From Folioceros fuciformis (Eukaryota), in NCBI GenBank assembly GCA_049999805.1, contig JBNGIO010006373.1:18201-58230 (forward strand): 40,030 nt of DNA, written 5' to 3'. A program made the translations under genes and the position numbers. The notes under the pieces were generated by a model. The model was not told the DNA's origin. It made no database searches and was given only the letters and a program-made list of their open reading frames with translations. Shown piece after piece: positions 20,860 to 40,030 of this stretch. The number at the start of each line of letters is the position of its first letter. Position 1 is the first letter of the stretch.

Positions 20860-23765
20860 ATGAGCGGAGGAACCATGAATCCGGCGAACTTCACCAACAA
20901 GACGAATGAGGCCCTGGCAGCGGGCCACGAACTGGCCCTCAACGCGGGGCATGCGCAGTACACTCCCTTGCATCTGATTCAGGCCTTCCTAGAGGACAGA
21001 GAGGGCCTGCTCCGTCAGGCCCTTACTACAGCTGGCACGGAGGAGGCTGTGGCCTCGGTGGAGAGGGTGGTGGATAGGGCCGTGAAGAAGCTGCCCTCGC
21101 AAACGCCTGCGCCGGACGAGGTTCCTGCCAACAGCGCTCTTGTGAAGGCCATTCGGAAGGGGCAGAATTTACAGAAGAAGAGAGGGGACACGCACCTTGC
21201 CGTGGATCAGCTGCTCTTGGGGCTGCTGGAGGATTCTCAGGTGCTGGAGTTGTTTCGGGAGGCTGGAGTGTCCATGGCGGCTCTCAAGCGGGCCCTGGAG
21301 GGCATCCGTGGAGATAGCAAGAAGGTGGAGGGAGCGACCGGGGACACCAATTACCAGGCCTTGAAGAAGTATGGCAGAGACCTTGTGGAGGACGCGCCGA
21401 AGTTGGATCCTGTCATCGGGAGGGATGAGGAGATCCGAAGAGTGGTGCGGATTCTGTCGCGGCGGACCAAGAACAACCCGGTGCTCATCGGGGAGCCTGG
21501 AGTGGGGAAGACGGCAGTGGTGGAGGGGTTGGCTCAGCGGATTGTGCGAGGGGATGTGCCGAGCAATTTGGTGGATGTGCGGGTGGTTGCGTTAGACATG
21601 GGAGCGCTGATTGCTGGAGCTAAGTACAGGGGAGAATTCGAGGAGCGGCTCAAGGCCGTGCTGAAGGAGGTGGAAGAGGCGGCGGGGAAGGTGATTCTCT
21701 TCATCGATGAAGTGCACCTTGTGCTTGGGGCTGGGAGGACCGAGGGGTCCATGGATGCTGCCAATTTGTTCAAGCCTATGCTGGCCCGGGGGCAGTTGCG
21801 GTGCATCGGAGCGACAACGTTGGAGGAGTATAGGAAGTATGTAGAGAAGGATGCGGCTTTCGAGAGGAGGTTCCAGCAGGTCCTTGTGAAGGAGCCGAGC
21901 CCGGAGGACACCATCACTATTTTGAGAGGGTTGAAGGAGAAATACGAGACGCACCATGGCGTGCGCATTTTGGACCGGGCCTTGGTTATTGCTGCTCAGC
22001 TGTCGGCGAGGTACATCACCGGGAGGTTTCTGCCGGACAAGGCAATTGACTTGGTGGACGAGGCTTGTGCGAATGTGCGGGTGCAGCTGGACAGCCAGCC
22101 CGAGGTTATTGACCAGTTGGAGCGGCGGAGGATTCAACTCGAGGTGGAGCTGCATGCTCTGGAGAAGGAAACTGATAAGGCCAGCAAGGCTCGGCTAGCC
22201 GAGGTGAAGAAGGAGCTGGAGAACTTGAAGGAGAAGCTGCAGCCGCTGGCTATGAGGTATCAGAGGGAGAAGAAGAGGCTTGATGAGTTGAGGCGTCTGA
22301 AGCAGAAAAGGGAGGAGACGACGCGCAGCATCCAGGAGGCGGAGAGGCGCATGGATCTCGCGAGAGTGGCGGATTTGAAGTACGGTGCTCTCCAAGAGAT
22401 TGAGAACACCATTTTGCGACTTGAGGAGGAGCTCGGAGAGAACTCCATGTTGACTGAGACTGTCCATCCAGAGCATATTGCAGAGGTTGTTAGTCGATGG
22501 ACGGGCATCCCTGTCACGAGACTTGGTGAAGATGAAAAAGAGAAGCTCATGGGGTTAGCGCAGCGGCTGCACGAGCGTGTTGTGGGGCAGGACGAGGCTG
22601 TGGAAGCTGTGGCTGATGCCATTCTGAGGTCCAGGGCTGGACTTGGTAGACCGCAGCAGCCTATGGGGTCCTTCCTCTTCCTTGGACCCACTGGCGTCGG
22701 GAAAACTGAACTTGCCAAGGCATTGGCAGAGCAGCTCTTCGATGATGAGAAACAGCTGATCCGTATTGACATGTCGGAGTTTCAGGAGCAGCATGCTGTT
22801 GCTAGGTTGGTGGGTGCACCTCCAGGGTATGTGGGGTATGATGAAGGGGGCCAGTTGACGGAAGCGGTTCGAAGGAAGCCCTACAGTGTAGTTCTTTTTG
22901 ACGAGGTGGAGAAGGCCCACTCCTCCGTTTTCAACATCCTCTTGCAGATCCTGGATGATGGAAGGCTGACTGATGGACATGGAAGGACAGTGGACTTCAC
23001 TAACACAATTGTCATCCTTACTTCTAACCTCGGTGCCGAGCACCTCCTTGCTGGCCTGTCAGGGGAAATATCCCTGGAGCAGGCTAAGGCAAGAGTCCTG
23101 GACACGGTATGTTCAGAAACCAAAACTGTCCGTCTTGAGGCCACGTAGGACTTTGTGGGTTCCTGTGTTCTGACATTTATGTCCGCCTCTTGCAGGTTAA
23201 GTTTCACTTCAAACCAGAATTTCTGAACAGACTGGACGACATCGTTGTCTTCAAACCATTGTCTCGAGAGCAGCTCCGAAAGATTGCACGGTTGCAACTG
23301 AAGGACATAGCAAGGAGGCTTGCAGAGAGGGGCATTGCTCTAGCAGTGACAGACCAAGCGATTGACCTTGTGTTGGGAGAGGCATATGATCCGGTGTACG
23401 GTGCCCGCCCTCTCCGCCGTTGGTTGGAGAAAAAGGTGGTAACACAGTTGTCCCGGATGTTGGTAAATGGTGAGATCGACGAAAACTCGACCGTCATCAT
23501 CGATTCCAATCTACTACAGAAGCTGCTGTCGTACCGCGTGGAGAAGGGCGGTATGATTGACGCAAAAACGGGCAAATTGAATGAGCTTCTCATTCTTGTG
23601 CCTCCTCGGCCTAAGGATGAAGACAACCACGCCTTCAAGAAGGTTAAGATAACTGACCTCGACGAGGATGACGAGATGGCCGATCAAGATGGCTTTGAGA
23701 ATATGGACGGCTGGAGAGCTGAAGATGAGAAACCAGGGAATGGCCTTCGAGGCAGAGGATTGTAG
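20860..23765 (+). CDS. HSP101: Cytosolic chaperone ClpB1/HSP101; 2 exons
   Basis: Exons are 20860(or 20875)-23106 and 23196-23765, with an 89-nt GTATGT..TGCAG intron. The N-terminus is [14 protein letters not shown] with no transit peptide. There are two AAA+ modules ([16 protein letters not shown]), a ClpB coiled-coil M-domain, YGARPLRRW and an acidic tail. Confidence 0.97.
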
Positions 23766-28479: not shown

Positions 28480-30451
28480 GGGGACTATGCACATGCTAGT
28501 GGCGTCAGCTCTAAATGGGTGAAGCTTGAAGTTACCCTTTTCTGCAATAATAAACCACCACCTACCTTGTAGCTAAAAGAATGCTTACAGTTGTTGGCAC
28601 CATTTGTCTGGCAGTGAGTTTAGAATAGGGTGTGTTTGTTGCTGTGACATAGTCATGAAGACATTTGCTATATCTACAGCCCCTCGTCTTCCTCGTCTTC
28701 CTCGTCCTTCTACACATATGGAACTACACATGAACCACATGCTCATCGTTGGAGTTGATGCTGTTAGTCTCTCCTTTATGGCTTTTTTGTCAATAACATA
28801 CAAGTGTTTTTCCCTTGTTAGGTGGAAGTCGTAGAACAACATGACAATTTTGTTGACATATAACTTTTGTACATTCGGGGCCTTCATTGTTTTCCCTTCT
28901 CTCTCTCCAGACGATCTCTCCACTTTGGACAATGTCTTCTCCAATATAGAGGCCCTCGAATGCATTTGTGTGTTCTGCCACCAGCAAAAATTGATTGGCA
29001 GCTCCTAGGTTTGTCCACAAGACCTTTGCTACCTAGAATGCTCAGATATGGGTGTCTCCCTCACTAGGAGTTACCATAAACATACCCTTCTGTATTTTTG
29101 AAATATTGTCGTTCATGCGTTCAATTTTCTCCTCCCTTCTCTCCACACTTTGATATGCACCCAAGTACATCTTACACGGTGCAACATCTCGAATGAGTGC
29201 TTCCTCCAGAATGGCTTCCTCCAGCAGCTGCATGGGCACTATTGTGACAGCTGCTAACTTCCTATCATACCACTTCCAGGGCTCCATAAGCATAAGCCTG
29301 ATGTTGTGGTCAACAATGTTTGCTATCTCCCCCTACTCAGCCCAAAAGTCCTCCCACCACTCAGCTTCCTCGGTGCTCAAATACAATGGTAGCTTCTGCA
29401 ACCCTTTCTTCAAGTGCACGAGATCTTCGCCCCCTATTATGCCTTCCTCCATCCCCTTCTTGTCCTTTGCTATTAAAGGGAGGAGGGTGGTCGGCCTAAT
29501 CTAGGTGTTTGGCACAAACATTAAGAACTCTAGGCCATCCTCCGACTCCCACAACGCAGACATGGAGAATTGCAAAATCCTTATCACGATGACTTTGCCT
29601 CGTCCAAGCTTTTCCTCTGTGATTTTGAACTAGCGTTGAAATGACAAGTTGTTGAGTTTCTTCACAGCGCTATCATATGGTTGACCCCTTTTTGTCTTCA
29701 TGACAGGCCAAACAAAGCAGCGAAAGTTGGCCACTTCTGTAACAAGCTTCACCTTTAGTGCTGGCGTGTACATGCCTTCTAAAATGTTGCTAAGCACACA
29801 CATCGTCGCGTCTTTGTGCTTCAAAGGCATTGAGAACCTTGAGAACATTTATTAACTTGATCATGCTTGTGCCCAACTAGAAGAAAGCCAACCTTAACTT
29901 TCTTAAAAACCTCAAGCTCCACAAGCATATTCAAACATGCGAACAACGATTGGCTTTTATTCTTCCTGCTCATGTTGTCAAGCTGCAAATACAAAATTGT
30001 CTGCAAATACAAAATTGTCTGCAACAACCGTTGTAGGTATGAATCACATCTTGCACGATAAAGATTGTTAGGTTGGCATCATTGCGGATATTTCCATAAT
30101 GTAGATATGGCCTCGCCTTCACCAAATGGTTATGGATCATGCAACCGACAACATGTACAGTTATACGACAATCTTCTTTCAGCTCTTTCAGCCATTTTAG
30201 CATGTGCGGTAGCGTCGTTTTTTTGCTCTTTGCCATCATTGCATATCACCAAATACTTATGTGGCTCCGCGTATGCTTTGGTACGGTGTTTGTATAGTTT
30301 TTGCCACTCCTCCATTAGTCGTTGTTGGTGCTTGTTAAGGGCTGCTTGATACTCACTTGTCGACATAAACAACATCCAAGGTTTGAGGACATGTCTAGTG
30401 ACCTCATTGAGAACTACGACCGCTCCATCGCGAAACCCTTCTCCAATGCCA
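28480..30451 (-). mobile_element. Degenerate DDD-type DNA transposase (Sola1-like; family call tentative), interrupted by the Copia insertion
   Basis: Frameshifted fragments occur in order: HRTKAYAEPHKYLVICNDG(KEQ)K-KTTLPH, NIRNDANLTI, LYLQLDNMSRKNKSQSLFACLNMLVELEVFKKVKVGFLLVGHKHDQVN, MFSRFS. These resemble the DGMDQ / LQLDN..ENKN / VGHTHEDIDQ.FS catalytic motifs. Confidence 0.75.
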
Positions 30452-30654
30452 TAATGGGATAAGTGCTGGAAATTACCTAAGGCACGTCTGGTTAAATAGG
30501 GTTAAAACCCACGCACCCATTCGTTTGGGTTACGATGTTTCATAGGCAACGTTTCAGTTAGTTCTTGTTGTTCATAAGATAAACTCATGTATATACTTTT
30601 TTCAGAATGTAATTATTTATTTTTATTTTTACATACATTTTCAATACTTTGAAA
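30452..30654 (+). repeat. 5' LTR
   Basis: TAATGGGATAAGTGCTGG...CAATACTTTGAAA is a direct repeat of 37230-37432 and is immediately followed by the PBS. Confidence 0.92.
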
Positions 30655-30666
30655 TGGTATGAGAGC
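30655..30666 (+). promoter_or_regulatory. Primer-binding site (tRNA-iMet-like, one mismatch)
   Basis: TGGTATGAGAGC versus the canonical TGGTATCAGAGC, directly after the 5' LTR. Confidence 0.8.
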
Positions 30667-31014
30667 AGTATGTAGATTTGATGTTTGCTGTTTATAAATA
30701 AAATACATTGAAAAAGATGCATTCTGAATATAGTTTTGTTGTTTTTTATTTAGAAAAAGTGTTTTCTTGATCAAGAAAACAAAACTTTCAAGAATGTATT
30801 TTTTTTGTGTTGTTTCTTTGTATAATCGTTGATGCAATCCCTGGCAAATTAAGGGAGTGATCCTGGTGCATCTTTCCTGAGATTGCTATTAAGCAATCTC
30901 AGGAGACATGCGCTAGGACAACTACCTAAATCTGCAAATAGATTGTCAAAATAATTTATATAAAATACAATGTTAAATAGAAAACATTTGACAACACAAG
31001 ATTTGGCCTCATGA

Positions 31015-31746
31015 ATGGCCAACCGACTGGACGGGCACCAATGGCAGCCTCGCCCTGCTGAGCGCATCCCACAACATCAGAATCTCCATAGGAGGCAGGG
31101 GGCACAAGTTGTGAGAGACGTAATTGCAGAGCAACTTCATCAATTAGTTACAGAATGGATTGCTCATGCACAAAATCAACCTGTGCTATCTCTGGAAGTA
31201 AGAGAGTCTTTTAATACCTTGATTGAAGTTCTCTTTCCAGATCAGGGCCATTTGGCCATTGCCCTCCCACCAAGGAATCCTGAAAATCTCCCTGAGATTC
31301 GTGTTCAGAGAGCTTTTGATGGTAATGGTGTACAAAGAGGTTTTCTAACAACACATGTAGCACCTGCCACAAGTGTTACTCAATTAGTACATAGAATTGA
31401 GGCACATCAAGAACATGTAGATACGCGTTTCAGCAATATACTACAAAAGGTCTCAGCAACTAGTGTAGATGTTAGAGACTTGCAGGAACAAATTTCACAT
31501 TTAGATTTTAAACTCCTTACCTTGTTGAAGCCTGTTTTACTCGCTAATCCTGTACATAGAGAAGCAGCCTGTAAACATGCCAAGAAAACAAGTAAGAAAC
31601 ATATGTTTGGTGCTCCTAACTCTTGTCCTTCCTTCTCAGTATATGCATTCAATAAATGGGAGATTAGAAATCACAAAATAGCAAACAGAACTAGAGAGCA
31701 AGAGTCTGTCTATAACAGACCTGCTAATGCTGTCAACATTCTTTGA
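31015..31746 (+). CDS. Unknown 243-aa extra ORF upstream of gag inside the Copia element (coiled-coil-like segment)
   Basis: An uninterrupted ATG-initiated ORF lies between the PBS and gag. It has a heptad-like segment VTQLVHRIEAHQEHVDTRFSNILQKVSATSVDVRDLQEQISHLDFKL. No domain was recognised. Confidence 0.6.
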   Translation: MANRLDGHQWQPRPAERIPQHQNLHRRQGAQVVRDVIAEQLHQLVTEWIAHAQNQPVLSLEVRESFNTLIEVLFPDQGHLAIALPPRNPENLPEIRVQRAFDGNGVQRGFLTTHVAPATSVTQLVHRIEAHQEHVDTRFSNILQKVSATSVDVRDLQEQISHLDFKLLTLLKPVLLANPVHREAACKHAKKTSKKHMFGAPNSCPSFSVYAFNKWEIRNHKIANRTREQESVYNRPANAVNIL

Positions 31747-31862
31747 TTTTGCTTACCTGATAAGCATATGTCTGAAGTTTTGATATAATAAACCCCTGTA
31801 AAAGCCACTTTGGAATCTTAGTGTCTTGGGAGTAGCTAACCCAAAGCACAAAAGGAAGAAAA

Positions 31863-34800
31863 ATAGCAGATGCCTCATCTAGCCTAGGTGGGGAAGGGTT
31901 TAGAGAAAAAGACAGATTTGGTGGTCAGGATTACGATATTTGGGTAATCCGAATGAAGGGAGCCTTATAGAACAAGAAGCTCTGGAAGGTTGCTATTGGA
32001 GTAGATACTGCTCCAACAGTTTCAAATCCACCCACAGCAGCTGAAAACAAATCATTGGAAGCATGGGATGCAAAAGATGAAGCAGCCATGTTCCTAATCC
32101 GGAGTGGTCTTACCTCAGAGATGCTGAGACAGACATCCGGATGTGCCACTTCAGCTGAGATTTGGTTCAGACTTCAGGACCTGTATGCAGGAAGCAATCA
32201 AACTAGTCAGATGACAGCCCTGCGAAACTTACAGCTTTGTAAGATGAAGGATGGTGAATCAATTGAGAAACACCTTGGACATTTCAGAACACTTGTCTCA
32301 AAATTTAAAAGTGCTTCAAATGAGGTTCTGCAGGATGATATGCTTGCTTTGTATTTCCTTATATCACTTCCGGAATCTTGGTCACATTTCGTTACTTCCT
32401 TCAATGCTTCAAGGCTCCAAACTGAAAAGCTTGCAAAAGCTTCAAATGTGACTATGCCAGAAACCACATTTGCAAAATTAGTGGGAGCATTATTACAAGA
32501 AGAAGCTACAAGGCAAATTCATAGAAGGACAGGCAAGCAACAAGCACTCTACACATCTAATAGAGGACGTGGTGGAGGCAGACCTTATAACAGAGATGGA
32601 GGCAGCTCTTCAAGGGGTGGTGGCTCACAAGGACGTGGATCCGGAGCCAGCCAAAGAAAACCAAAAAGGACAGGCAACTACAACTGGTGCAAGTTACCTG
32701 GTCATTGGGAGCGTGAGTGTCGTAAAAAGCAAGCTGGTATTCCTCGCAAGGAGGGTTCAACCAGTGCTGAAATTCATGTGGTTGTGAAGAAACAACCAAC
32801 CCCTTCAGCCCTCACAGTAGGTACAATTGTGTTTGCAACAAGTTCATTCTTGTATCCTGCCAGCCTGTCAGCAAACACAAAAGCAAGGCCAGTGTCAGAT
32901 TGGTATCTTGACACAGGGGCTACAGCCCACATCTGCTTTGATAAAGGGTCATTCCAAACGTACAAAACATATAAGGATCAGTATGTGTACCTAGGTGATG
33001 ATAGATCCCTAGTGTCTCCTAGTCGTGGAACCATAGACTTGTCAGTTCCATCAGGGCACTTGTTAACACTGTATGATGTTTACTATGTCCCTGACATGAC
33101 TCGGAATTTGATTTCAGTCAGAAAACTCAATTTTGACAATCACTATCACATTTTATTTACACATACAGAATGTCAAGTACTGGATGCTTTCAATCATAAT
33201 AAAGTACTTGCCTATGGGTCTTCAGACAGAGATTTGTTTCTTCTTCACACAGACAGTATTGCACCAACTTCAAATTTAACACATGATGCCAGTGCTGTAT
33301 CTACACAACAAATAGAAAAGGTTAAGTTGTGGCATAAGAGATTAGGTCACCCACGTTCAGCAAAACTTCAGAAACTTGCTGTAAGTGATTTTTACCAGGA
33401 TGGTCCTATTGGGCAGTTGGCATCTCTTCCCTTGTGTGAGTCTTGTGTTATTTCCAAAAGGCATCAAGCAGCCTTTAGAAATAAAGCTCCACATAGAGCC
33501 TCTGAGGTTCTAGAACTAGTACACACTGATCTGTGTGGACCTCTATCTCAAGAATCCATAGGAGGTGGCAGATACTTCCTAACCTTCACTGATGATAAGA
33601 CTAGGTTTGTCACCACCTACATATTGAAACAGAAAAGTGAGTGTTTCAATCACTTCAGAAACTACATCAAGTATGCTGAAAGATGGACTGGAAAACAACT
33701 CAAAACATTACGATCAGACAACGGGGGAGAGTTTACCTCCCATGAATTCCAGGCATACTGTACAGCTGAGGGAATTGGTCGCCAGCTGACAGTGGTTTAC
33801 ACACCTCAGCAAAATGGTGTTGCTGAGCGTCTTAACCTTACTCTGCAAGAAATGACATCTTCCTTATTACATCAAGCGCAGCTTCCATTGCCATACTGGG
33901 CAGAAGCTATAATTACTGCAACTTACCTTAAAAACAGGTTGCCAACTACTTCTGTCGTAGGCCAGACACCTTTTGAAGCCTTCACAAGGCATAAGCCTTC
34001 TATTCTTCACTTGCGCACATTTGGATGTGTAGCATACGCTTTTATACCTAAAGAGAAAAGAAAAAAGCTGTCAGACAAGGCCAGAAAGCTACTTATGCTA
34101 GGCTACACAGAAGGAATTAAAGCTTATAAACTCTATGATGTACCTAAGAACAAAGTCATTTATGCAAGAAGTGTTACCTTTAATGAAGACCTTAATTGGG
34201 TATCAGTGGGAGCTGTTCAGAATGAGGACGTTGATCCCACTGATGATGATGCTTCCTTTGATCAATCTGATCACAGTACTCAACTTGTTCCAATGGAGGA
34301 CATTGCTCCTGCACGTGGGGAAGATCCAGCAGCTGGTTTTGAGCTCCTTGATGTTGAGGACATATCAGCTGTAGAACCTGCACGTTTCGATACTGAACAT
34401 CCTACTGAGCAGCTGGATTTACAGGAGCAATATCCTCCTGAACACGTTGTACAAGACAATGTTAATCCAGTTGATCCTGTTGAGCAAGCTGATCATGAGC
34501 ATGTACCTGACCTTCAGCAAGATCATCCAGTCTTACCTGCAGAACCAGTCCGGCGGTATCCAACTCGTCATAGGCAGCCTCCAAACTTTTACCAAGCTCC
34601 AGACTTCAGGAATCCTTCTTCTCATGTGGCAGTTCATGCTGATAATTTTTCACTTGATCCCTTTGAACCTCAGTCCTATGAGGAGGCACTTAGTCGACCT
34701 GATCATAAAGAGTGGGAGAAGGCTATTCAATCAGAATATAACTCACTGATGGAAAATGGAACATGGGAGCTTATAGACTTACCTCCAGGCAGAAAGATGG

Positions 34801-36257
34801 TGACTTGTAAGTGGGTCTTCAAGTTGAAAGTAAAAGCAGATGGTACCTTTGATAGGTACAAAGCCCGTTTGGTAGCAAGGGGCTTTACCCAAATTCCTGG
34901 ATTGGATTATCTCGAAACTTTTTCTCTAGTGGTCAAGCTTTCAACTCTCAGAATTATCCTGGCCATATCAACACACTTTGATTATGAGCTGTAGATGTAT
35001 GATGTGAAAACAGCTTTTCTGTATGGAAAGTTAGACATTGAAATCTACATGCAGCAGCCACTAGGATATGTGGTTAAAGGAAAGGAGCATCAAGCATGCA
35101 GACTAGTCAAATGCTTATACGGCTTGAAACAGTCAGCCATGAAGTGGAATGCAGCCCTAGAAACAGAATTGCTAGAGCTAGGTTTCACAAAGAGCCAAGC
35201 AGATAGTAGTTTATACATTTACCTCAAAGGGAATGTCATATGTTACTTGGCAGTCTACGTGGATGACCTGATTTTGTCAAGCAATAGTCAGGTCTTCATT
35301 ACACGTATAACAGATGTGTTAGCAACCAAATTCAGAATGAATTGCCTAGGACCTTTACAGAGCTATCTAGGAATTCATGTACAGAGAAACAGGCAAACTC
35401 GAGTCATGACATTGACGCAACCTCGTTACCTCTTAGACTGTGCTGAGCAGTTGGGTCTTAAGGATGCAAAACCTGTTTCTACACCCATGCCGTTTGGTCA
35501 GAAACTCAGCAAGCTGATGTCACCTTCAACTCAAGAAGACAAGGAGCAAATGAAAGGAATACCTTACAGGCAGGGAGTAGGCAAGCTGATATATGCAAGT
35601 AACACCACAAAACTGGAAGTTGCATATACTACCAGCGTGCTTTCTCAGTTTTTGGAAAATCCCGGAAAAGAACATTGGACAAACTTGAAACGAGCCTTCC
35701 GTTACCTGAAAGGCACAGCAAAGATAGGCATAGCCTATAAGCATCAAGAAAGAAAGCCACTTGACCTTGAAGTGTTTACGGATTCAGACTATGCAGGAGA
35801 CATCGATAGTAGGAAATCAGTTTCAGGCTATGTTATTTCAGTTGCTGGAGGGCCTGTGTGCTGGTCTAGCAAGAAGCAACCAACAGTTGCTCTTTCTTCA
35901 ACAGAGGCTGAATACAGGGTCCTGACAGCAGCAGCCAAAGAAATAGTGTGGTGTAAGCTCTTGTTCAAGGAACTAGGTATACAGATACCAACTTGCACAA
36001 CTATCCATATTGACAATCAGGGTTCAATGGCATTAGCAAGAAATCCAGTATTCCATGCACGTGCAAAGCATGTGGAGGTGGAATACCACTACATAAGAGG
36101 ACTTTTGACTGAAGAGAAAGTGGAGCTGCAGTATGTTCCGACACAGGATAACCCAGCAGATATACTTACCAAAGCTTTGAGCAAAGAAGCTCATTATAAG
36201 CACATGCAGCGTTTAGGGATGGGAGAGGCAGAAGCTCTCTTGTCCAACCTAAAATAA
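31863..36257 (+). pseudogene. Copia gag-pol polyprotein, single frame with premature stops
   Basis: Gag begins RFGGQDYDIWVIRMKGAL*NKKLW, with a probable start mutated to ATA at 31863 and a TAG at 31968. Then come a damaged zinc knuckle YNWCKLPGHWEREC, protease WYLDTGAT and GAG-pre-integrase WHKRLGH..CESC. Integrase reads VHTDLCGP/LRSDNGGEF/PQQNGVAER. RT reads YKARLVARGF, with a TAG at 34992, then DVKTAFL and YVDDL. RNase H reads FTDSDYAG..SSTEAEY..DNPADILTK. Confidence 0.93.
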
Positions 36258-37097
36258 CACAGAGTTCCTCTAAAGGCCCGAAGAGTTAGAGCTATCTGAA
36301 TCTTCTCTATCTCAACTCCTGACTGCAAGGTTTCGTAGATGGACTCATCTTCAGTTTCAGAACTTGAGCAGTTGACGGGCGACAGACGGTCTTGATTAGA
36401 CTTCACAACTTTCCCTTTACTTTCCAGCCCTCTTTCTTCTTTTAACTTCTTAGTAGACTCTGCACAACAAGAGGGAGATATCAGAAAATATCAAGAACAA
36501 CAAGAAATAGCAGCAGCAGTGAGAGCAACAAAGAAAGACTGTAAAGGACTTACTGTACACACTGACGACGTGCCCAGGGAAGCAACTGCAACGAAGAACT
36601 CTCACTCGCTTCATTATCAGTTGGTCCAGACCAATCCAGACCCTGTACCAGACAGGAGAACAAGGAACAGCGCGCGTGCTACAGGTCACAAGCTTGGTTA
36701 CTTCATCGTAGCTGGAGGGCCTTGGCAGCTTCACAGGGATACGGCCCTTGAAGCTGGTGTTGTAGTAGGAGACGTCCAAGTTCAGAACCCTGATGTGGGG
36801 CGTGACCTCTCCTCCTTCCGCTGGTTCTTCATGCCCTGGACTAGCTTCCGGCCTTGAGTCTTTGGTAGTTGTCCTTGGCGCAAAGCGACCTAGAGAGTCA
36901 CGATAGCGGCGCACCTTGGAAGAGCGTTCAGGTGACGAGGAATACATGGCGGCGGTAGCAGTATCCAGAAGGTAAGCGATATTCTGGCTGAGCACCTCAC
37001 AGAGCATCCTTGATGCAAGAAACAAGGCTGCTATAGACGCGGCAAACTGGAGCTTCACTGCCATCATGCTGAGGTAAGTACGCTTCACGATCTCCAT
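36194..37097 (-). CDS. Putative two-exon antisense gene (269 aa, unknown function) inside the Copia element
   Basis: Exon 1 is 37097-36554. The intron is 36553-36460 (94 nt; GTAAGT donor, CTGAT branch-like motif, pyrimidine tract, TGCAG acceptor). Exon 2 is 36459-36194. Splicing is phase-matched and joins two otherwise separate ORFs with no stop. Confidence 0.62.
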
Positions 37098-37220
37098 GTG
37101 GCGGCACAGTCCAGAGAGGCCGCAGCTGGAACGTAATCGAGTGTCTTGCGCCCCAACTTACTCACGAGGTGTGAACGTGGAAGGGGTATTAAACGGAATA
37201 TTCCCTACGTAATTACCAGC

Positions 37221-37229
37221 AAGTGGGAG
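37221..37229 (+). other. Polypurine tract
   Basis: AAGTGGGAG lies immediately before the 3' LTR. Confidence 0.7.
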
Positions 37230-37432
37230 TAATGGGATAAGTGCTGGAAATTACTTAAGGCACGTTTGGTTAAATATGGTTAAAACCCACGCACCCATTC
37301 GTTTGGGTTACGATGTTTCATAGGCAACGTTTCAGTTAGTTCTTGATGTTCATAAGATAAACTCATGTATATACTTTTTTAAGAATGTAATTATTTATTT
37401 TTATTTTTACATACATTTTCAATACTTTGAAA
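37230..37432 (+). repeat. 3' LTR
   Basis: It is a direct repeat of 30452-30654 and is followed by the TGCCA TSD. Confidence 0.92.
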
Positions 37433-38739
37433 TGCCATTCTCTAAGTTTCCTCAAAGGTCAAGACGAGAGCATGTAGGGGCGCTTCCCCTTTATCCTCTC
37501 ATTTCTTCCCAAGGGGAGGGGGAGGATGACAGCATGCTGGTGCCTTCCCCTCTCCTTTCCTCCCACCCTTCCACCAATATCTCTCGTGAGGGTTGCCCAT
37601 CCGTGAAGCTTCTACCTTACCTTTCACTCCATATGCAAATCGCATGATCTGCTGTTATACAAATCATTGGCAAGGGATCTCCCCTTCTCACCAATGATAA
37701 CTTCCCAGATGCCCTCCCTCAACCTTCCATGCCCTGCCCTGCCCTCTGCCCGCCTAAAACATTGCACAATTGCTACTTCAGCAAACGACATGCGATTGAT
37801 AGCGCTGACCAGCTAGTACCCTCCCATTGCCTCCTTTAAACCCTCCTTGCATGCCATTTCCCTTACTAGTAGGTAAGGTGTGGGCGCTGGCATGACCTTC
37901 CCTCCCATAAACCCTACGTGCATTCCCTATTGTTCATTGTCAACGAGGGTGGAGGCTTCAACATGCTAGTGCCTCACCTCTACATGACAATAAGCAAACC
38001 CTACACACAGAGCTCCAACATACCCTTGCCTGCGCTCCCTTTCCATCCCCTTTCCTTCCCTTTCTCCCCATTTTCCCCAAGGTGTACCATAGATCTTTGT
38101 ATAATAAACCTACGCTAGACCTTTGTATCCTAGAAGTAGTCTAGACCTTTTTATCCTAGATGAACCAAATCATTCTGTTCACGTTGTAGAGGTACCATGC
38201 TCACCGAAGTATTATAACACACACTCACCTAAACTGTAGGTATTGTGTTCACCAAAGTAATAATCCTAATACACTCACCTGCACCAAAGCATTCTCACAC
38301 ATTCACCAAGACCTTGCAAATTTCGACAAAAGAAGGACCCACCAAAGTATCCTACATGTACCTTGCTCTTACAAGTCTAGGCAAAACAAGGATCCACCAA
38401 AGTATCTTGGAGATTAAAAAACCCCGCTGCTCTTGCAGATCTCGACAAACAAGGACCCACTTGAAGTGGGCCTAACCTTGCTTTAGATACAAAAGAACCC
38501 CCAAGATTTATGGTTAATCAACTAGCCCATAATCAAACTTAGGTTTGTACCACATTAAGATATTAATCTAGATTAGAAAAAAAAACGTTGCATGAGTGAT
38601 TTTTTTTAATAATTATCAAGACTAGAGACAAGAAAATAGAAAATGTGGCTTCAGTGATCGGGTAATTTTTTTCCATAGCATAAAGAGTCGCTAGTGACAA
38701 TATGGGAAGATACAAGAATGATCAAAGCAGACATCTGCC

Positions 38740-39742
38740 CCCGCCGAAGTTATGACATCATATCGCTCCTGTACGAGAATGATAGCAGAGAACGCATGTC
38801 CTGGCCCCGCCTCTACAATTGTTTAACCCCCTCAAGCTCTAAGGTAATAGATCCATCTAAAACTTCCATAATCTACTCACAAGCCCATCCTAAGGAATAA
38901 ATCTACCACTCACAAGCCCGTCCTAAGGGATAAATCTATCACTCACAAGCCCGTCCTAAGGGATAAATCTATCACTCACAAGCCCGTCCTAAGGNNNNNN
39001 NNNNNNNNNNNNNNNNNNNNNNNNNNNNNNNNNNNNNNNNNNNNNNNNNNNNNNNNNNNNNNNNNNNNNNNNNNNNNNNNNNNNNNNNNNNNNNAGCCTA
39101 TCCTAAGGGACAAAAATACTACTCACAAGCCTGTCCTAAGAGATAGATCCATCTAAAACTTCCATAGTCCACTCACAAGCTCACCCTCGCTCGAGTTATG
39201 ACATCATATCACCCCTACAACCGTTCAACCTCTTCAAGGCCTAAGGGATAGACCCTTTTACAACTTACATAGTCCACTCACATGCCAGTTCAGATATGAG
39301 ATAAACACTAGCTTGGCCACATCGACCTCCATCCTCCTCAGGCCCAATCACTAGCTTGGCCACATCGATCTCCATCCTCCTCAGGCCCAATCAATCACTA
39401 GCTTAGCATATCGATCTCCATCCTCCTTGGGCCCTATCACTAGCTCGGCAGCACAGACCTCTATCCTCCTCAAGCCCAATCACTAGCTTGGCCACATTGA
39501 CCTCCATCCTCCCCATTTAAAACTTGCGTAGGGATAGACCCATTTAAAACTTTGTAGGGATAGACCCATTAAAAACTTTCATAGGGATAGACCCATTTAA
39601 AACTTTTGTAGGGATAGACCCATTTAAAATTTTCATAGGCTAGTTCTGATATGAGACCATCACTAGCTTAGCCAAATGGACCTCCATCCACTCATATGTC
39701 AGTTATGAGACCATCACTAGCTTGGCCACATCGACCTCCATC
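38740..39742 (+). repeat. Composite tandem-repeat block (33-nt, ~43-nt and ~28-nt units)
   Basis: TCTA(C/T)CACTCACAAGCCCGTCCTAAGGGATAAA occurs at least 4 times and runs into a gap. ATCACTAGCTTGGCCACATCGACCTCCATCCTCCTCAGGCCCA occurs ~5 times (39306-39512), with partial copies at 39659-39742. TAGGGATAGACCCATTTAAAACTTT occurs ~4-5 times (39513-39640). Confidence 0.88.
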
Positions 39743-40030
39743 CCACGAGGCTGGAGCAATATCCGTCCGCCAAGATGTGTCAAATCCGACCATGTATAAT
39801 AGCGTATACTATACAGATGCAAGAGAATACTACGACTATGAAGGCGGGCTAACTTATACTTAAACTATGATACTAAATGTGTGTATGTATGTCGTTTATG
39901 AACATACGATTCCACCGGCTCGAGCCCCATCCAGCCGTGAAGTTACAACCAAAAACTCAACCAAATACTTTACACGCGGCATTGGTATTTGCCACCAGAG
40001 TACAACCTGCATGTCAGCGCCGACTGGCAG

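Follow-up and report, generated by a model that had tools for sequence, protein, structure and literature searches.

An antisense reading frame with a predicted intron in a Copia element

We analyzed a stretch of 40,030 nucleotides (nt) from Folioceros fuciformis (contig JBNGIO010006373.1 of assembly GCA_049999805.1, positions 18,201 to 58,230 of the forward strand), which is called the window here and whose coordinates are used throughout. The locus of interest is an intron-containing open reading frame (ORF) that is read from the minus strand between the end of pol and the 3′ long terminal repeat (LTR) of a retrotransposon. The ORF sits inside a Copia element of 6,980 bp (30452-37431), which was inserted as one unit, and both the ORF and its intron go beyond what chance produces. 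A host-like composition of its first exon and the presence of the stretch in about two copies lead us to favor, tentatively, the reading that it is host-like DNA that was captured in reverse orientation by a low-copy Copia element in a transduction-type event. The minus strand holds an ORF of 215 amino acids (aa) at 36450-37097 and a second ORF of 70 aa at 36194-36406. The original prediction had joined the two by an intron, and its coordinates for both ORFs, the intron, the splice signals, the phase and the product were all reproduced. The parts of the joined frame are as follows.

36554-37097, minus strand: antisense exon 1, starting with the ATG at 37097; 544 nt (181 codons and 1 base), a GC-rich block
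36460-36553, minus strand: antisense intron of 94 nt with GTAAGT...CTGAT...CAG; GC 0.39, T 0.49
36194-36459, minus strand: antisense exon 2; 2 bases, 87 codons and a TAA stop (36196-36194)

The donor GTAAGT begins at 36553 and the acceptor CAG ends at 36460. A CTGAT motif lies approximately 20 nt ahead of the acceptor. The 15 bases preceding the CAG include 12 pyrimidines. Splicing of exon 1 onto position 36459 is in phase (...HVVSVY-K-STKKLKEERG...) and gives a stop-free product of 269 aa, while the Cys/Leu/Phe tail of the 215-aa ORF turned out to be translated intron, as had been proposed. The ATG at 37097 is the first possible start because an in-frame stop is found 14 codons ahead of it; its context is CCGCCACATGG. 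The 3′ LTR starts at 37230, 133 nt from this ATG, which leaves a leader of 132 nt. At the other end, exon 2 of the window copy overlaps pol, which ends at 36257, by 64 nt; the overlap and the distance to the LTR both agree with the values that had been given earlier. The T-rich intron is flanked by GC-richer exons (GC 0.54 for exon 1 and 0.44 for exon 2), a pattern of real introns in plant-like genes. Its length of 94 nt compares with 89 nt for the intron of the host ClpB gene (23107-23195), the sole host intron modelled in the window. A further, tiny intron in the leader (GTGAGTAAGT...CCAG, approximately 40 nt) was considered and discarded, being shorter than the usual minimum size of an intron. 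The hydrophobic stretch that had been noted at the N terminus of the product is present; as a membrane helix, however, it is merely borderline, since the maximum of the 19-residue Kyte-Doolittle mean is 1.75 (residues 9-36), a value that is equally borderline for a signal segment. A Lys-rich stretch, KSTKKLKEERGLESKGKVVK, follows the splice junction. For a translated product, the N-terminal helix would point to the membrane or secretory route, the Lys-rich stretch to the nucleus.

The carrier element

The region 30452-37431 constitutes one insertion unit because the hexamer ATGCCA is duplicated at both of its flanks. The usual target-site duplication has a length of 5 bp, so one base of the 6-nt repeat is ambiguous. 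The following features were assigned to the element and its borders.

30446-30451, no strand: left flanking direct repeat ATGCCA (target-site duplication), read directly; found again after the right LTR
30452-30653, plus strand: 5′ LTR, approximately 202 nt
30655-30666, plus strand: primer-binding-site-like sequence TGGTATGAGAGC, one base past the 5′ LTR; putative, from its likeness to the usual motif
31015-31746, plus strand: additional ORF of 243 aa, in sense, located after the primer site and ahead of gag; element-like in composition
32055-36257, plus strand: Copia-type gag-pol, interrupted by an in-frame TAG at 34992-34994; upstream, the gag-like frame reaches to approximately 31900
37221-37229, plus strand: purine-rich, polypurine-tract-like sequence AAGTGGGAG abutting the 3′ LTR; likewise judged by its motif, function presumed
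37230-37431, plus strand: 3′ LTR, with a palindromic TATATA at 37368-37373
37432-37437, no strand: right flanking direct repeat ATGCCA, read directly

As found by comparison, the repeats extend over 30452-30656 and 37230-37434; the final 3 nt match the beginning of the right-hand duplication. The two LTRs differ at 5 of 205 aligned positions. Their termini depart from the usual TG...CA. The LTRs are very short and AT-rich (GC 0.28 to 0.31 over 37275-37499). The sequence TGGTATGAGAGC probably resembles the site at which initiator-Met tRNA primes Copia elements. A Pfam scan along gag-pol yielded, in order, Retrotran_gag_2 (residues 2-153), Pol_BBD, gag_pre-integrs, rve (487-584), SH3_retrovirus and RVT_2 (901-974, continued in the next ORF). 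The integrase thus precedes the reverse transcriptase (RT), which is the Copia order, and together with the LTR pair and the 6-nt flanking duplication these domains place the antisense ORF within a genuine Copia element, as had been claimed.

The window copy is a member of the Copia family but is defective, with an interrupted gag-pol. In-frame TAG codons are found at 31968-31970 in the N-terminal region of gag and at 34992-34994 in the RT, and no ATG lies ahead of the conserved N-terminal gag motif. The antisense ORF is uninterrupted, whereas gag and RT in the same copy carry stops. An ORF as long as the extra sense ORF at 31015-31746 arose in none of 5,000 block shuffles. Neither a Pfam family nor a homologue was found for this ORF, and the ESM Atlas gave weak leads only (0.86, viral fusion-glycoprotein-like clusters), with a recognition below the usual level. 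The window contains 310 N, none of them inside 30446-37437 in the stretches that were read.

The antisense frame and its intron exceed chance

The length of the frame was compared with that of M-started ORFs in randomized versions of 36194-37229. An ORF of at least 215 aa appeared in none of 5,000 Markov-1 randomizations (the longest reached 211 aa) and in 7 of 10,000 shuffles inside 60-nt blocks, which preserve local composition and the GC step described below. For the intron, the first 500 nt of the ORF were kept fixed and the remainder was randomized in 20,000 trials. Strict criteria (GTAAGT no more than 150 nt from the end of the ORF, 11 or more pyrimidines among 15 bases, YAG and a continuation of the frame in phase by 60 codons or more) were satisfied in 7 of the 20,000 randomized tails, and in 1 of 20,000 when the extension had to reach at least 85 codons. 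Under relaxed criteria (any GT and a weak tract), a joining GT-AG was present in approximately 20% of the random tails; therefore, it is the quality of the signals and not the bare GT-AG joining that bears weight. The annotated frame ranked first of the six frames for both exons, under the host and the pol codon tables alike.

On the opposite strand, a stop-free run of approximately 150 codons extends across 36400-36860. The plus-strand ORF contained there (36519-36857, 112 aa) matched no Pfam family. When the spacer (from the end of pol to the 3′ LTR) was compared with the remainder of the window, just one 14-nt chance match appeared.

Composition of the antisense exons

Exon 1 has a GC content of 0.54 and a GC content at third codon positions (GC3) of 0.60. 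The GC3 of five host ORFs in the window ranges from 0.46 to 0.69; these comparison genes include those for a ClpB-type chaperone, a DnaJ protein, a TFIIS-domain protein and a DUF309 protein. Pol and the extra ORF at the 5′ end show GC3 values of 0.36 and 0.305, respectively. Exon 1 was also better described by host codon usage, with a log-likelihood per codon of -4.146 under the host table and -4.280 under the element table. In a GC profile of 150 nt, values of 0.53 to 0.57 extend over approximately 36550-37200, while pol, exon 2 and the intron remain at 0.41 to 0.44, and the step falls at the donor site. A host-like composition is thus confined to exon 1 and the leader; exon 2 and the intron are element-like.

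A second copy of the stretch

The comparison data were Logan contigs of three DNA sequencing runs from one sample (X1, X2 and X3). The region 36250-37200 was covered by a single contig per run, at a depth of 29.8 in X1 and 20 in X2 compared to 12.6 and 10, respectively, in the unique flank. The stretch is therefore present in about two copies, a crude estimate from contig depth. The X2 contig spans 36011-37259 and bridges the end of pol, the spacer and the start of the LTR at approximately twice the flank depth, which indicates that the stretch travels with the element. Other contigs bridge the LTR and the flank (37230-37900).

Relative to the window, the contigs show 10 substitutions over 1,027 nt and 14 over 1,250 nt. 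In addition, an extra A behind position 36298 was present at full depth in the contigs of all three DNA runs. When the alternative frame of the window is read on accordingly, residues 236-269 would be replaced by nine residues, and the frame would end at a stop at 36272-36270, so that the product would have 244 aa and exon 2 would no longer overlap pol. Hence, either the 64-nt overlap and the Cys-rich end belong to the window copy alone, or they stem from an assembly error within a short run of A.

Within exon 1, contigs of X1 reached additional depth (84 over 36553-36633 and 40 to 60 over 36715-36957, compared to 30 for the main contig), which could come from another related locus or from branching variants of the two copies. 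X3 differed mostly by C>T (105) and G>A (134) changes; it looks like DNA of this sample after bisulfite conversion and might report on methylation of the element. Over the RNase H part of the element (35800-36200), the summed depth rose to 650, from many diverged contigs, compared to 12.6 in the unique flank. This indicates that many other Copia families in the genome share the RNase H part but not the spacer; at a likeness of at least 80%, none of the RNase H-matching contigs of these families extends into the spacer. A fourth run (X4), which we guess to be RNA, gave two contigs, both less than 90% alike and ending at 36239, and was uninformative on expression.

Capture of host-like DNA as the favored reading

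An ORF that is confined to few copies and has a host-like first exon is better explained by capture than by an accessory gene of the element, so of the two origins that had been offered for it, an element-encoded accessory gene or a captured host gene, the latter fits better. Passages of PMC7264820 likewise attribute extra ORFs that occur in few copies to transduction and describe conserved antisense ORFs without host counterparts. We regard capture as the leading candidate, held with less than even confidence. The captured piece would be approximately 36550-37200 (exon 1 and the leader), possibly together with the intron, and would represent real or recently coding host-like sequence. It would have been inserted in reverse between pol and the polypurine tract and then copied at least once with the element. 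During replication through the sense RNA, the intron would be present as its reverse complement (CT...AC), which the spliceosome would leave in place, and new copies would inherit it. The intron would thus persist because the replicative RNA of the element carries its complement. That an antisense intron outlasts reverse transcription had already been part of the original prediction; the logic is sound and is established knowledge, and according to passages of PMC12786077, it is exploited in intron-bearing reporter cassettes.

The outcome would be a two-exon ORF carried as a passenger, whose length of 244 to 269 aa varies with the copy; its product would have a hydrophobic helix at the N terminus, with the rest probably disordered or of unknown fold. 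If transcribed, it may start in the 132-nt leader or on the antisense face of the 3′ LTR. There, the TATATA at 37368-37373, located 271 to 276 nt upstream of the antisense ATG, is a candidate promoter element, as judged from its motif and position. An antisense RNA, if made, would show complementarity to the genomic RNA of the element at its 3′ end.

Several observations weigh against a captured host sequence. Exon 2 and the intron follow the composition of the element, and the GC step may be read in either of two ways: exon 1 and the leader are foreign, or the step mirrors the difference between an exon and intron plus low-complexity sequence. The host codon table was built from just five ORFs of the window, and the copy number was derived from crude contig depths. 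Transduced sequences are mostly sense oriented, according to PMC7264820. No parental host gene or any other homologue of the ORF was found in the protein searches. The large searches were queried with exon 1 (181 aa), and exon 2 (87 aa) was scanned against Pfam only. Exon 1 gave no match at an E value of 0.001 or below among 1.84 billion representatives, none of 72 word-sharing candidates scored in a word-indexed search, not one of the 276 pattern matches from metagenome contigs held up, the ESM Atlas returned no usable match, and the best hit in the PDB (E value of 0.058, an antibody chain) was taken as noise.

The weight of these blank searches was judged from the element itself. The best matches of its own RT-RNase H had 46% identity across the entire length and 67% across 60% of it, and the pol relatives in the metagenome contigs were only 33 to 44% identical. 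Since pol itself lacks close database relatives, the lineage is poorly sampled, and blank searches with the ORF weigh little.

Alternative explanations

We consider it rather unlikely, though less so than the explanations that follow, that the ORF is a long-standing accessory gene of the element, which would be transcribed in antisense from a promoter inside or beside the 3′ LTR, spliced, and act as a regulator of the element life cycle or of its silencing, as in the elements Grande, RIRE2 and Retand. Place and orientation are exactly those of the class described in passages of PMC7264820, in which known antisense extra ORFs are likewise reported to be without database homologues. The ORF and intron exceed chance, a second copy carries the same stretch, the frame has stayed intact while gag and pol of the same copy hold stops, and the context of the ATG (CCGCCACATGG) and the TATATA on the minus strand of the LTR would suit a gene. 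However, the ORF is present in only about two copies, its last 34 codons are frameshifted between these copies, and the composition of exon 1 is host-like, unlike that of pol or of the 5′ extra ORF. Pfam returned no family at an E value of 1 or below for exon 1, exon 2 or the 215-aa ORF, so that TRP28 (PF04195), SMC and other domains were all unmatched. A single-sequence AlphaFold2 model of exon 1 had a mean pLDDT of 56 and a pTM of 0.29, with 111 of 181 residues below 50, and its confident part comprised a helix at residues 2-53 only. Of seven relatives, four distant Copia elements (33 to 36% pol identity) had at least 2.5 kb after pol, and none of these four carried an antisense ORF of 100 aa or more in that part. 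With no homologue, domain or fold, a C terminus that is frameshifted between copies and a defective carrier, an element-encoded accessory gene under antisense LTR promoter control, as put forward earlier, was not supported.

Less probable still is a fortuitous ORF, in which a GC-richer, noncoding spacer happens to be stop free on the minus strand and is extended by a chance GT-AG. The blank homology searches, the lack of a domain and the poor model are what such an ORF would give; the opposite strand is also stop free for approximately 150 codons, relaxed GT-AG joining is common in random tails, and some long ORF is to be expected when 40 kb is scanned. Against it stand the rarity of ORFs of this length in composition-keeping shuffles, the rarity of an intron of this quality, the first rank of the annotated frame under both codon tables in both exons, and the T-rich intron between GC-richer exons, a pattern typical of introns in plant-like genes.

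A stretch outside the mobile unit, created by a recombination or assembly join of a 3′-truncated element, host DNA and an unrelated LTR, would agree with the 310 N of the window and with the fact that all contigs differ from it at 36298 and by 10 to 14 substitutions, the window copy not being separate among the contigs listed, but it is very improbable given the same 6 nt beside both LTRs, LTRs that differ at only 5 of 205 positions, independent contigs that bridge 36011-37259 (X2) and 37230-37900, and the freedom from N of 30446-37437 in the stretches read.

Other features of the window

A scan of 30000-38000 against Rfam gave no matches. Just past the element, at 38842-39743, several families of short tandem or interspersed repeats with spacings of 33, 43 and 27 nt were observed, with an N run near 39088. 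At 1661-2326 on the minus strand, a 221-codon frame broken by an N run presumably resembles the endonuclease domain of non-LTR retrotransposons.

Relation to known systems

Extra antisense ORFs or transduced fragments that lie between pol and the 3′ LTR are a known class, and the ORF falls within it. According to passages of PMC7264820, antisense extra ORFs at this place are relatively frequent in plant elements, with maize Grande (gene23), rice RIRE2, Silene Retand and Phaseolus PvRetro13 as examples. The ORF described here shares with them the position, the antisense orientation, the lack of database homologues and a possible promoter of its own or in antisense, and its Lys-rich KSTKKLKEERGLESKGKVVK may be compared, by composition alone, with the nuclear localization reported for the Grande protein. 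It differs from them in several respects. The named examples are described as being of the Gypsy type and having spacers of several kilobases, whereas here the carrier is a Copia element with a spacer of 972 nt; for Retand, passages of PMC11963269 give spacers of 2.9 to 6.6 kb and mostly a TRP28 domain. Neither TRP28 nor SMC is present in the ORF studied here, which occurs in about two copies, while theirs are found in all or most copies. It also has a spliceosomal-type intron, and the word "intron" does not occur in either PMC7264820 or PMC11963269. The statement that 3′ antisense ORFs are described mainly for Ty3/Gypsy elements of the Tat type agrees with the examples named in PMC7264820; it overstated the rarity of such ORFs, however, because PMC11728184 reports a catalogue of almost 4,000 additional ORFs in Copia and Gypsy elements. 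The literature search found no intron-containing antisense ORF in a Copia element, and that catalogue, which lay outside the search, may hold such cases.

With transduced host gene fragments, the ORF shares a foreign, host-like composition, a very low copy number and a defective carrier. Reported transductions are usually in sense, and captures via RNA are usually intronless; here, the piece is in antisense and the intron has been kept. A third comparison is HBZ of human T-cell leukemia virus type 1 (HTLV-1), which is expressed from a promoter in the 3′ LTR and is also an ORF reversed beside this LTR. HBZ has a spliced form, and a spliced mRNA is predicted here, which would likewise need an antisense promoter at the LTR. 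For HBZ, an antisense promoter and nuclear localization are described in review passages of PMC7264820 and PMC11963269. Unlike HBZ, the present ORF is known from sequence alone, shows no likeness to HBZ in sequence and none to bZIP or any other Pfam family, and has its first exon in the body of the element and not in the LTR.

A more far-reaching possibility, which we hold to be quite improbable, is a Copia lineage, in a plant-like host that is poorly sampled, with a true spliced antisense accessory gene expressed from the antisense face of a very short 3′ LTR. The product of this gene would be an orphan protein that starts with a hydrophobic helix and contains a Lys-rich region, and together with the 5′ extra ORF at 31015-31746 it would give the element a layout like that of a complex retrovirus, in which the intron is kept by virtue of its orientation. 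If expressed and conserved, the ORF would provide an example of a spliced antisense gene in Copia and would extend to these elements the class of antisense extra ORFs, the functions of which are still obscure. If it is a captured host fragment, it would hold a lesson for annotation, namely, that such ORFs are not to be called host genes, and would otherwise be unsurprising. Such a fragment would be a natural illustration of how orientation shields an intron through retrotransposition, and of exon shuffling by retrotransposons.

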